Notes under the pieces: model-generated
Told to the model about the DNA's origin: nothing
Databases searched by the model: none
The model's input: the letters and a program-made list of their open reading frames with translations, nothing else
Origin: Candidatus Marinacidobacterium sp.
GTDB lineage: Bacteria; Acidobacteriota; Vicinamibacteria; Marinacidobacterales; Marinacidobacteraceae
Assembly (NCBI GenBank): GCA_965220965.1
Contig: OZ244852.1
Coordinates: 1,824,001 to 1,888,000, forward strand
Length of the DNA: 64,000 nucleotides
Reading direction: 5' to 3'
Part shown: positions 44,094 through 51,289 of the stretch, in pieces
Numbering within the stretch: position 1 is the first letter of the stretch
How the letters are laid out: each line of letters opens with the position of its first letter
Position numbers and translations under genes: made by a program

Positions 44094-44144
44094 CGAACGG
44101 CAAGATACCGTGCGGTCGGCGGCAGCGTGAAGAACAGGCCGCAA

Positions 44145-44192
44145 CCACTAGGGGTAGTGGTTGCGCGAGGGCGGGACCACAACATGTTGGGG
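44145..44192. promoter_or_regulatory. Tandem NrdR-box-like operators
   Basis: ccaCtAggggTaGtgg (44145-44160) and ccaCaAcATgTtGggg (44177-44192), 32 bp apart, compared with consensus acaCwAtATaTwGtg. Confidence 0.65.
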
Positions 44193-44199
44193 TCCACCC

Positions 44200-44228
44200 T
44201 TGACCGATGGGGGAGTGGCTGCTAGCCT
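44200..44228 (+). promoter_or_regulatory. Putative promoter of the MBL-purBSQLF operon
   Basis: TTGACC-N17-TAGCCT. Confidence 0.55.
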
Positions 44229-44298
44229 CGCGCGCTTGCGGGGAGGGGTGGGGACGGCCGTCGCGGCGCGCCGCGCGAACCCCTCCTGGAGACGCCGC

Positions 44299-46799: not shown

Positions 46800-46804
46800 T
46801 CCGG

Positions 46805-47506
46805 ATGGCGCGCCGCCGGTTCGCGGTCCCGGTGTTCCCGGGAACGAACTGCGAGGGGGATGTCCTCCACGCCCTCCGCACGGTGGCGGACCAGGAGGCG
46901 GAACCCGTCTGGCACCAGGAGCGGTCGCTCGCCGGCTTCGACGCCGTCGTCGTGCCCGGCGGGTTCGCCCACGGGGACTATTTGCGGGCGGGGGCGCTGG
47001 CGCGCTTCTCCCCGATCATGGAGCCGCTCGCCGCGATGGCGGAGGCGGGAGGGGTCGTCGTCGGGATCTGCAACGGGTTCCAGATCCTTCAGGAAGCCGG
47101 CCTGCTTCCGGGGGCCATGCAGCGGAACCGGTCGCTGGTCTACGTCTGCCGGGAGGTCTGGGTCCGGGCGGAGGACACCGGCTCTCCCTTCACCGCCGGC
47201 CTCCGGCCGGGCGCCACGCTCCGGCTGCCGGTCGGCCACGCGGAGGGCAACTTCCACCTGCCGGACGCCGAGCTCGAGGCGCTCGAGTCCCGGGGGCAGG
47301 TGATCTTCCGCTACTGCCAACCGGACGGCGCGCTCAGCGACGCCGCCAACCCGAACGGCTCGCGCAACCACATCGCCGGGGTCCGGAACCGGCGCGGCAA
47401 CGTGGCCGCGCTTATGCCGCATCCGGACCGCGCCTACGAACCGGCGCTCGGGGGCGTCGACGGCGTTCGGCTGTTCGAGAGCCTCCTTCGGTGGATGGAG
47501 GCATGA
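46805..47506 (+). CDS. purQ: FGAM synthase glutaminase subunit PurQ
   Basis: FPGTNC, PGGF..GDYLRAG, GICNGFQ, NPNGS and MPHP. Confidence 0.95.
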
Positions 47507-49746
47507 CGCCGCCGGAGGGGGTCCCGGGACTCGCGGACGCGCTGGCGGCGGGGCTCACCGAGGACGAGTACCGCGCGATCGGCGCCCGGCTGGGCCGCAG
47601 CCCGAACGCCGCCGAACTCGGGATGTTCTCGGCGATGTGGTCCGAGCACTGTTCCTACAAGTCCTCGAGGAGGGTGCTCGCCGGCTTCCCGACCGAAGGC
47701 CCGCGGGTTCTCCAGGGGCCCGGCGAGAACGCCGGCGCGGTGTCGCTGGGACACGGGCTCGCGGCGGTCTTCAAGGTGGAGTCGCACAACCATCCCACCT
47801 TCATCGAGCCCTTCCAGGGCGCGGCCACCGGGGTCGGCGGGATTCTGCGGGACATCTTCACGATGGGCGCGCGGCCGGTAGCGCTCATGAACTCGCTGCG
47901 TTTCGGACCGCTGGAGGTGGCGAACAACCGCGCGCTGCTGGCGGGGGCGGTGGCGGGGATCGCCAACTACGGCAACAGCATGGGCATCCCCACGGTGGGA
48001 GGCGAGGTCGCCTTCGAGGACTGCTACACGCTGAACCCGCTGGTGAACGCCTTCGCGCTCGGGGTGGCGCCGGTGGACCGGATCTTCCTGGCGCGCGCCG
48101 ACGACCCCGGCGACACCGTGTTCTGCGTCGGAGCGAAGACCGGGCGCGACGGGATCCACGGCGCCTCGATGGCGTCCGCCGAATTCGACGAGGAGGCCGA
48201 GGCGAAACGCCCCACCGTCCAGGTCGGGGACCCCTTTCTCGAGAAGCTGCTGATGGAGGCCTGTCTCGAGCTGATGCGCGGCGACGCGCTCGCCGGCATC
48301 CAGGACATGGGCGCGGCGGGGCTCACCTGCTCGACGGCCGAAATGGCGTCGCGCGGGGGAACCGGGATCGAGCTGGATCTGGACCGCGCGCCCCAGCGCG
48401 AGTCGGGAATGTCCGCCTACGAACTCCTGCTCTCGGAGTCCCAGGAACGGATGCTCCTGGTGGTGCGGCGGGGCCGCGAACAGGACGTGGAGCGGGTCTT
48501 CGAGCGGTGGAACCTGGACGCCTCGTCCGTCGGACGGATCACCGGGGACGGGCTGCTGCGCGTCCGCCATCGCGGTGAGGAAGTGGCGGCGGTCCCGTGC
48601 CGGGCTCTGACCGACGAGGCGCCCGTCTACGACCGACCGCACGCCGTCCCGGACGGCTTTCCCGTAGCGGAAGTGCGGGGCGGCGACCTGCCGGAACCGG
48701 TCGACTGGGGGGGCGCCGTCATGCGGCTCGCGGGCTCGGTGGGCCTGGCCTCCCGCCGGCACGTCTACGAGCAGTACGACCACATGGTCCGCAGCGACAC
48801 CGTGGCCCGTCCCGGCGCCGACGCCGGCGTCGTCCGGATCAAGGGGCTGCCGCTCGGGATCGCGATGACGCTCGACGGGAACGGGCGCTACACCGCGGCG
48901 GACCCGCGCCGGGGCGGCGCGCTCGCCGTCTCCGAAGCCTGCCGGAACCTGGCCGCGGTGGGGGCCGTCCCGGTGGGCGCCACGAACTGCCTGAACTTCG
49001 GGAACCCGGAGAAACCGGAGGTCATGTGGCGGTTCCGGGAGGCGGTCCGGGGCATGACCGAGGCCCTCGAGGCGTTCGCGGTCCCGATCACCGGCGGGAA
49101 CGTGAGCTTCTACAACGAGACCGATGGCGAGGGCATCTTCCCCACGCCGGTGGTGGGAGTCGTTGGCGTCCTCGAAGACGTCTCCCGGGTCGTTCGGCAG
49201 CACTTCCGCGAGCCGGGGGACCGGGTGTTCCTGCTCGGGCCAAAGGCGCCCGACGCGCTTGGAGCGAGCGAGTACCTCAAGGTCTTCCACGGGCGGACCG
49301 ACGGACGCCCGCCGGCGCCGGACCTCGAAGCGGAAATCCGGCTCGGCCGGCTGCTGCGGGCCGCCGCCGCCCGGGAGCTCACCCGCTCGGCCCGGGATCT
49401 CTCCGAGGGCGGGCTGGCGCAGGCGGCGGTGGAGTCGCTCTTCGCCCCCGACGGAGGGCGCATCGGCGCCACCCTCGCCATCGATCCGGCGGTTCCCGCC
49501 GCCTCCGCGCTCTTCGGCGAGGCGCCCGCCCGCGCGCTGGTGAGCGTCCACCCCCGGGACGCCGACGCCCTCGGCGACCTCGCGGAACGCCACGGCGTGG
49601 CGATCGCTCCGCTCGGAACGGTGGGGGGAGACGAGCTCACGCTTCGCCTGAACGGCGTCGAGGCCGCGCGCCTCCCGCTCGAGCCGCTCGCCGACGCCTT
49701 CTTCCACAGCCTGGCCCGCGCCGCCGCCGTCGAGGGAGCAAAATAG
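47503..49746 (+). CDS. purL: FGAM synthase subunit PurL
   Basis: [30 protein letters not shown] and GGNVSFYN. Confidence 0.96.
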
Positions 49747-49846
49747 GCGGCTCGCGACCCGATTTGCTCCCCATGCGGCGCCGGCCCACGCGCCGACCGG
49801 TCGTGGCTCGCGAGATCCCCCGTCCGCCCGGGGAAGGAGATGCGGC

Positions 49847-51289
49847 ATGAGCGCGGCGAACTCCTCCACCAATCCCGTCCCGCCTTCCGGCTTTCGCGAG
49901 GAGTGCGGAGTCGTGGGAATCTGGAATCACCCCGAGGCGGCGCGGTTGGCCTACCTGGGCCTCTACGCGCTCCAGCACCGGGGTCAGGAAGCGGCGGGGA
50001 TCGTGGCCGCGGCCGGCGAGGGCGGAAGGCTCCGGGGCGTCACCGGAAGCGGCTATGTCGCCGACGTGTTCCCGGTGGACGCCCTCGACTCGCTGGCGGG
50101 AACCAGCGCGATCGGCCACACCCGCTACTCGACCGCCGGGTCGAGCAGCCCCGAGAACATCCAGCCGATCCAGATCGAGTGCAAGTTCGGGCAGATCGCG
50201 GTCTGCCACAACGGCAACCTGGTGAACGCCCACATCCTCCGGCGTCAGCTCGTGGACCGCGGATCGATCTTTCGGACGACCTCCGACACCGAGGTGCTGG
50301 TTCACCTGTTCGCCAAGTCCGGACAGACCGACGAACTCGAGGCCGTCGCCGAGGCGGTCCGCCAGGCGGAGGGCGCCTTCTCGCTGCTGTTCCTGACCAG
50401 GAAGGCGCTCTACGCGGTGCGGGACCCCCGCGGCTTCCGCCCGCTACTGCTGGGCCGGGTGGGTGACGGGTTCGTCGTCTGTTCCGAGACCTGCGCGCTC
50501 GACCTGATGGACGGGGAGTACATCCGGGACCTGGAGGCGGGCGAAATGGTCCGGATCGATGCGGACGGCGTCCGGTCGATCAAGCTGTTCGACGAGATGC
50601 CGGTCTCCCAGTGCATCTTCGAGCACGTCTACTTCGCGCGCCCCGACAGCCGGGTGTTCGGACGCGACGTCTACCGGACGCGGATCCGGCTGGGGCGGAA
50701 CCTGGCGCGCCAGGCGCCGGTCGAGGCGGATGTCGTGGTCCCGGTCCCCGACTCCGGGCTGGTCGCGGCGCTCGGTTACTCGCAGGAATCCGGCATCCCG
50801 CTCGAGATGGGGCTGATCCGGAACCACTACGTGGGGCGCACGTTCATCGAACCACGCCAGTCCATCCGGAACTTCGGCGTCCGGGTGAAGCTCAATCCGG
50901 TTCCTTCGGTGCTGGATGGCCGCCGCGTCATCCTGATCGACGATTCCATCGTGCGCGGCACGACGAGCCGCAAGCTGGTCCAGTTCACCCGGAACGCCGG
51001 GGCCACCGAGGTCCACTTCCGGGTGTCCTCGCCTCCCACGACCGGCCCCTGCCACTACGGCATCGATACGCCGCTGCGGTCCGAGCTGATCGCGGCCCGG
51101 CAGTCGGTCGAGGAGACCCGCGAGTTCCTGAACGCCGACAGCCTGGCCTACCTCTCGCTCGACGCGCTCGAGGACTCGGTGGACGACGAGCGGGACCGCT
51201 ACTGCACCGCGTGCTTCTCGGGCAATTACCCGCTCCCGGTCCCGGAGCCCGATCAGATGCAGACGCTTTTCGGCCGAAACCGGAGGTGA
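49847..51289 (+). CDS. purF: Amidophosphoribosyltransferase
   Basis: EECGVVG, LQHRGQ, CIFEHVYFARPDS, DDSIVRGTT and CTACF. Confidence 0.96.
   Translation: MSAANSSTNPVPPSGFREECGVVGIWNHPEAARLAYLGLYALQHRGQEAAGIVAAAGEGGRLRGVTGSGYVADVFPVDALDSLAGTSAIGHTRYSTAGSSSPENIQPIQIECKFGQIAVCHNGNLVNAHILRRQLVDRGSIFRTTSDTEVLVHLFAKSGQTDELEAVAEAVRQAEGAFSLLFLTRKALYAVRDPRGFRPLLLGRVGDGFVVCSETCALDLMDGEYIRDLEAGEMVRIDADGVRSIKLFDEMPVSQCIFEHVYFARPDSRVFGRDVYRTRIRLGRNLARQAPVEADVVVPVPDSGLVAALGYSQESGIPLEMGLIRNHYVGRTFIEPRQSIRNFGVRVKLNPVPSVLDGRRVILIDDSIVRGTTSRKLVQFTRNAGATEVHFRVSSPPTTGPCHYGIDTPLRSELIAARQSVEETREFLNADSLAYLSLDALEDSVDDERDRYCTACFSGNYPLPVPEPDQMQTLFGRNRR

Follow-up and report, generated by a model that had tools for sequence, protein, structure and literature searches.

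A putative NrdR operator upstream of a purine synthesis operon in a family of Vicinamibacteria

The stretch of DNA analyzed here, which we call the window, comprises 64,000 nucleotides (positions 1,824,001 to 1,888,000 of contig OZ244852.1, assembly GCA_965220965.1) from a Candidatus Marinacidobacterium genome of 3.25 Mb and 71% G+C, assembled in two contigs (C1 and C2). It contains a close-packed row of genes for a metallo-β-lactamase (MBL)-fold hydrolase and five proteins of purine synthesis, MBL-purB-purS-purQ-purL-purF, with rlmN as the divergent neighbor and purD and purE upstream of rlmN, running toward it. In the gap between rlmN and the MBL gene, and thus upstream of the whole row, lie two 16-bp partial palindromes that resemble the operator boxes of NrdR, which senses the supply of DNA building blocks and is known as a regulator of ribonucleotide reductase (RNR) genes. 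An original prediction, made from the letters of the window, had named these genes (rlmN, MBL, purB, purS, purQ, purL, and purF) and placed two palindromic boxes 32 bp apart in the rlmN-MBL gap, at 44145 and 44177; profile matches agreed with every gene name, and both boxes were found at those positions (Table 1).

Table 1. Features of the candidate operator and its surroundings. Coordinates are positions in the window unless a genome contig is named.
Feature	Coordinates	Strand	Remarks
rlmN	42930-44093	-	TIGR00048, 295.5 bits; divergent neighbor of the operon
Inverted repeat extending box 1	44140-44165		11 bp, perfect; terminator-like hairpin when read on the minus strand
NrdR-type box 1 (promoter distal)	44145-44160		CCACTAGGGGTAGTGG; 16-bp partial palindrome
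Linker between boxes	44161-44176		16 bp; sequence not conserved
NrdR-type box 2 (promoter proximal)	44177-44192		CCACAACATGTTGGGG; 16-bp partial palindrome
Predicted -35 element	44200-44205	+	TTGACC; 7 bp after box 2
Predicted extended -10 element	44220-44228	+	TGCTAGCCT; TAGCCT at 44223-44228, preceded by TGC; 17 bp from the -35 element
MBL-fold hydrolase gene	44299-45216	+	First operon gene; TTG start inferred; PF12706 (2.4e-18), PF00753
purB (adenylosuccinate lyase)	45220-46527	+	TIGR00928, 529 bits
purS	46524-46799	+	PF02700, 8.4e-27; GTG start overlapping the purB stop codon
purQ	46805-47506	+	NF002957, 287 bits
purL	47491-49746	+	NF002290, 958 bits
purF (amidophosphoribosyltransferase)	49847-51289	+	TIGR01134, 526 bits; committed step
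smc site	G000:C1:1603519-1603566 (L170:3920-3967)		Outside the window

Published NrdR operators consist of two 16-bp partially palindromic boxes separated by a linker of 15 to 16 bp, with 14 to 17 bp tolerated, so that the box centers lie about three helical turns apart (PMC13584703, PMC12051234). Six positions of the box are conserved (C4, A6, A8, T9, T11, and G13), with C4 and G13 being critical and A6 and T11 seemingly so; A8 and T9 are dispensable in vitro, and positions 3 and 14 are free, and a double change of A3C and T14G hardly alters binding (PMC13584703). The two boxes in the window start 32 bp apart, and both have C4 and G13, 8 bp apart, as well as A6 and T11. Box 2 matches all six conserved positions, with AT at positions 8 and 9 and an AT content of 75% between C4 and G13; box 1 matches four of the six and has GG at positions 8 and 9. 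As originally described, box 1 sits within an 11-bp perfect inverted repeat. The extension of this palindrome beyond 16 bp is specific to this genome and is not kept in relatives. Read on the minus strand, the extended palindrome (44140 to 44165) resembles a terminator hairpin; GCCTGTTCTT comes next, with the rlmN start shortly downstream. The boxes are rare: the pattern CCACWANNNNTWGKGG matches the 64-kb window at boxes 1 and 2 only, with 0.00 matches expected (100 shuffles), and a search of the whole genome for CACWA-N4-TWGTG returned 21 16-mers with at least nine of the 10 core positions and three with all 10, the latter being box 1 and a 32-bp pair before an RNR gene, nrdJ.

The original prediction presupposed an nrdR gene in the genome, and a full-length one is present, scoring 169.5 to 172.2 bits against TIGR00244 (cutoff, 124.65). 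The encoded protein aligns with Streptomyces coelicolor NrdR (7P37) across residues 1 to 144 and keeps the Zn-ribbon cysteines C3, C6, C31, and C34 together with Asp15 and Arg17, the two residues reported to contact box positions C4 and G13 (PMC13584703). Three RNR large-subunit genes were found in this genome, all located away from the pur locus, and one in each of 27 others; these 28 genomes, from seven genera of one family within Vicinamibacteria (Acidobacteriota), form our comparison set. Two of the three genes were classified, both as class II (NrdJ), and no class III RNR gene was found in the genome. Upstream of the chromosomal nrdJ (start, C1:1581899) lies CCACTAGGGGTTGTGG, with CCACTACATCTTGTGG 32 bp further on and TTGACA 8 bp after that. 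The pur and nrdJ layouts thus match, down to the GGGG center of the distal box. Across the family, 27 of the 28 genomes have a tandem pair upstream of nrdJ in which the boxes are 31 to 32 bp apart and agree with the core at 16 or more of 20 positions; the best pair in the remaining one (G004) reaches only 12 of 20. The distal boxes of the family nrdJ and pur sites nearly always have a G/C center (CCGG, CCCG, or GGGG), the proximal boxes are centered on ATGT or ATCT, and this polarity is kept at both genes.

A weight matrix built independently of the pur site ranked it next to the nrdJ site. The matrix was symmetrized and derived from the nrdJ boxes of 26 family genomes, with this genome left out and G004, which has no site, omitted; it was run across the 3,247,944 positions of the genome, and pairs were taken at 31 to 33 bp. 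The highest single scores were those of nrdJ box 2 (25.4 bits), pur box 2 (24.7 bits), a box at C1:1603519 upstream of smc (24.7 bits), nrdJ box 1 (19.3 bits), pur box 1 (17.0 bits), and a box upstream of the second nrdJ-type gene on contig C2 (15.8 bits), in that order. As pairs, nrdJ scored 44.8 bits, pur 41.7, smc 28.8, and the C2 nrdJ gene 14.8, and all others scored 9.7 bits or less. Scoring the sites with a matrix from nrd promoters had been the check proposed with the original prediction, and in it the pur boxes came second and fifth, and the pur pair second, genome-wide. The weaker pair at the second class II RNR gene (G000:C2:270813-270860; L004) lies 50 to 97 bp upstream of that gene and abuts an extended -10 element, TGGTATAAT. 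For the third RNR-type gene (C2, about 213.6 to 215.2 kb), no site was found within the stretch examined.

The site is conserved within the family and is largely confined to it. A box pair lies just upstream of MBL-purB in 25 of the 28 family genomes, representing five of the seven genera (22 of the 25 family loci first compared, plus three further genomes), and the 32-bp repeat distance is invariant in all 25, which bears out the conservation in relatives on which the original prediction depended. In an anchored comparison of these 25 genomes, the majority-base frequency was 0.95 to 0.98 in the box arms and 0.76 in the box centers, compared to 0.52 in the linker and 0.49 in the upstream flank. 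With one genome per genus (five genera), the arms still reached 0.94 and the linker 0.56. A stringent tandem pattern found 32 sites in the 28 genomes, zero to three in each; 25 are MBL-pur sites, five are nrdJ sites, and two are extra sites in one genome (G024), and the reversed pattern, used as a control, found none in the same genomes. Across the order, the stringent pattern was present in 24 of the 27 other family genomes and in 0 of 8 (including G033) and 1 of 19 genomes of the sister families. No 32-bp pair was found upstream of MBL in five loci from two sister families, and the best pair upstream of MBL scored -4.8 bits or less in 14 sister-family regions, versus 36.6 to 52.3 bits in the family. 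Among 80 named loci of other lineages, four carry a site, all ~60% identical in MBL; weak box-like pairs at three of the 80 (L053, L063, and L110) have a spacing of 41 to 43 bp and were treated as chance matches.

Downstream of box 2, the conserved elements are those of a promoter directed at MBL. TTGAC or TTGAT occurs 6 to 9 bp past box 2 in 22 of the 25 genomes with a site, and TGnTAnnnT occurs exactly once within 54 bp after box 2 in all 25. Since the genome background of the latter motif is 0.037 per kb per strand, 0.002 occurrences would be expected per stretch. The conserved -35 and extended -10 elements both point toward MBL-pur, which is therefore the predicted target of the promoter.

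Taken with the presence of nrdR, the matrix ranks, and the conservation in the family, these observations support the original suggestion that NrdR was co-opted for the purine operon. We consider it likely that the boxes are a genuine NrdR operator at the MBL-purBSQLF promoter, with repression as the most likely outcome; binding, the sign of the regulation, and its nucleotide logic are what we infer from the comparison with known NrdR systems. NrdR loaded with dATP and ATP is known to form a tetramer on both boxes and to kink the DNA (PMC9110341, PMC12051234). At the pur site, such a tetramer would occupy both boxes, each contacted by one pair of Zn ribbons, and would force a sharp bend on the DNA. 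Lying directly against the -35 element, the complex would hinder RNA polymerase at the -35/extended -10 promoter. High levels of deoxyadenosine nucleotides would then turn down purine synthesis, including PurF, along with ribonucleotide reduction, and NrdR carrying ATP only would release the DNA.

Several observations weigh against this reading. Box 1 lacks the usual A8 and T9 and is 50% AT between C4 and G13, less than the 63% inferred from native boxes as a lower limit (PMC13584703). Of the promoter originally described as TTGACC-N17-TAGCCT facing MBL-pur, the hexamers and their spacing stood, but a simple sigma-70 scan of positions 43900 to 44500 called no promoter, because TAGCCT matches three of six positions only; the promoter call thus rests on the conservation of TTGAC and TGnTAnnnT. 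The boxes of 22 of the 25 genomes, among them this one, stand clear of the core promoter, upstream of the -35 element and with centers near -50 and -82; a repressor is less typically placed in this way, and an activator would suit the arrangement as well. Coverage of the pathway is partial: sites are missing from purD-purE in the window and from all other loci of the genome. Two family genomes (G008 and G015) have nrdR and nrdJ boxes without a pur site, so that the link between NrdR and pur is dispensable and can be lost. Finally, the family counts overstate independence, because a single genus contributes 16 of the 28 genomes. A search for a relocated site in G008, G015, and G004, extending 4 kb further upstream of MBL, found none (best pair, 0.1 bits or less).

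The upstream placement is the basis of the first alternative, namely, that the boxes are an NrdR operator from which NrdR activates or fine-tunes the pur promoter, in the manner of a class I-type activator, from boxes near -50 and -82. Besides the 22 of 25 genomes in which the boxes end 6 to 9 bp upstream of the -35 element, the sole literature-tested non-RNR target of NrdR, topA of Pseudomonas aeruginosa, is activated (PMC4409342). Nevertheless, the nrdJ promoter in this genome has the same upstream layout, and NrdR represses RNR genes wherever tested. In genus g6 (three genomes), the pur -10 element is so near that box 2 covers the -35 element or the spacer, and this overlap with the core promoter is repressor geometry. 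An upstream position is also compatible with repression in Streptococcus pneumoniae nrdHEF, where box 2 is followed by both promoter hexamers (PMC12051234). The layout shared with nrdJ, the overlap in genus g6, and the S. pneumoniae precedent together argue for repression. Raised purine synthesis at high dATP would, moreover, have no obvious logic, and we regard activation as unlikely.

A second alternative is that the operator mainly serves rlmN and that its closeness to pur is incidental. Here, a mere 51 bp separate box 1 from the rlmN start codon, which means that an rlmN promoter must sit beside or over the boxes, and rlmN is the divergent neighbor in 18 of the 25 genomes. Its distance from the site nevertheless ranges from 13 to 889 bp, and it is absent from the locus in the other seven (among them G019, where the locus is cut by a contig end), in contrast to the MBL start, which lies 24 to 141 bp (median, 84 bp) from box 2 in all 25 and toward which the conserved promoter points. 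In addition, G004 keeps rlmN beside MBL without boxes. The original prediction had left both targets open; the constant distance to MBL favors MBL-pur, and rlmN did not hold up as a conserved target. We therefore consider it very improbable that rlmN is the main target, although it may be co-affected in this genome given its distance from box 1. Elsewhere in the family, the divergent neighbors are purH (G006), a gene for a DcuC-type transporter (G005), and open reading frames (ORFs) without a family (G002). In the first case (genus g5; L020:1334-1381), purH, with AICARFT/IMPCHase and MGS domains, diverges from MBL-purB, so that two purine units share the operator.

It is also conceivable that the protein binding these sites is another transcription factor, peculiar to the lineage, whose palindrome resembles that of NrdR. 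The G/C centers of the family distal boxes (CCGG or GGGG) are unusual and are unmatched by the published NrdR regular expression. Because it allows only A/T at positions 8 and 9, this expression would miss the pur site and the family nrdJ sites; the published survey of NrdR sites covered only the 500 nt upstream of RNR operons (PMC13584703). Changing A8C and T9G in both boxes of an operator hardly affected binding (82 and 65 nM; PMC13584703), and the mutant box has the same A/T distribution as box 1. The G/C center of box 1, and the CCCC...GGGG variants found in relatives, would thus be compatible with NrdR binding. Arguments against another factor are the same motif before nrdJ in 27 of the 28 genomes, the published critical positions and the 16-bp linker, and the conserved base-contacting residues of NrdR. 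The distribution of nrdR points the same way: it was found in 27 of the 28 family genomes, and the exception, G004 (87% complete), in which no nrdR was found, also has no boxes at any of the three places (nrdJ, MBL-pur, and smc). Regulator and sites may have been lost together there, but the genome is incomplete. In view of this, an unrelated factor has very little chance of being the ligand of these boxes. The idea that the boxes regulate nothing, with box 1 a mere RNA or DNA hairpin or the pair a chance match or repeat-element remnant, draws on the 11-bp repeat flagged as terminator-like on the minus strand, but it is barely credible, considering that the extended stem is genome specific and the 16-bp box conserved, that there is no upstream minus-strand gene to terminate, that box 1 on the plus strand lies upstream of the predicted start site, that shuffles predict 0.00 matches to the box pattern, and that the pairs number zero to three per genome and occur at orthologous places.

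Compared to known systems, the pur site shares with the operators of RNR genes (nrdAB, nrdHIEF, and nrdDG in Escherichia coli; nrdRJ and nrdAB in S. coelicolor) the two boxes, the linker, C4/A6/T11/G13, the position at a promoter, and the presence of nrdR (PMC13584703, PMC12051234, PMC9110341). It differs from them in that it precedes purine synthesis and MBL genes instead of RNR genes, in the G/C-centered distal box, and in that the boxes mostly abut the -35 element from upstream without overlapping the core promoter. NrdR has been described as an RNR-specific repressor (PMC9110341), and all targets described before topA were RNR genes (PMC4409342). The topA gene, which is activated through a single NrdR box, resembles the pur operon as a non-RNR gene with an NrdR site, showing that the regulon can extend beyond RNR genes (PMC4409342); the site described here differs in being a full tandem pair built like the RNR operator, conserved in a family, at a biosynthetic operon. 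The LacI-type PurR of E. coli, the PRPP (phosphoribosyl pyrophosphate)-sensing PurR of Bacillus subtilis, and purine and ZTP riboswitches likewise provide feedback on purine genes by purine-derived signals, but their molecules and signals are unrelated to NrdR. A scan of positions 40000 to 52000 against Rfam (E values up to 1) gave no matches, indicating no known riboswitch or leader before the operon. In the genome as a whole, no purine riboswitch was found, no ZTP riboswitch was found among 150 scored of 1,178 candidates, and nothing exceeded the cutoff for a B. subtilis-type PurR in a search whose scope did not include LacI-type PurR.

Our literature search, to which RegPrecise was out of scope, found no published link of NrdR to pur genes, and no occurrence of NrdR was noted in the excerpted part of a review on the regulation of the purine pathway (PMC10912719). 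A lineage-specific expansion of the NrdR regulon is well supported in silico. A broader proposal, possible but tentative, is that NrdR acts in this uncultured family as a master switch that senses adenine (deoxy)nucleotides and controls ribonucleotide reduction (nrdJ), the committed part of purine synthesis (MBL-purBSQLF, with purH in one genus), and chromosome organization (smc), in the role that PurR or purine riboswitches have in other bacteria. A conserved, complete tandem operator at the purF operon would mean that a dATP/ATP sensor can also gate purine supply, so that the making of precursors could be matched to that of DNA in a simple way. We know of no purine regulator in Acidobacteriota, and NrdR would be a candidate for that role. 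Regular expressions that require A/T at box positions 8 and 9 would, on the same reading, miss whole lineages of NrdR sites.

The smc gene of this genome (1,250 amino acids; SMC_N) is preceded, about 90 to 130 bp upstream, by a strong NrdR-type box, CCCCAACATGTTGTGG, which scores 24.7 bits and has a weak second box at a distance of 32 bp. In 21 of the 27 family genomes examined, a proximal box of 19 bits or more is kept about 89 bp ahead of smc, and because of this conservation smc looks like a third, putative member of the NrdR regulon.

The MBL protein, labeled WalJ-like in the original prediction, matches only general families (Lactamase_B_2 and Lactamase_B). Orthologues of its gene were found in all 41 relatives (a tally that includes G033), and in several acidobacterial orders purB comes immediately after the MBL gene (31 of the 73 loci whose downstream sequence was long enough, among the named loci of other lineages, L035 to L114). 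A function of the protein in some way tied to purine metabolism is possible.

The two extra tandem pairs in G024 score 47.1 and 41.2 bits (L168:2060-2107 and L169:2048-2095). They were considered as marks of further nucleotide genes and rejected as such, since the genes around them encode transposases (IS1595-type; DDE_Tnp_1/DUF772) and a Prok-E2_A protein or are unnamed ORFs. Some NrdR sites may instead be associated with mobile DNA.

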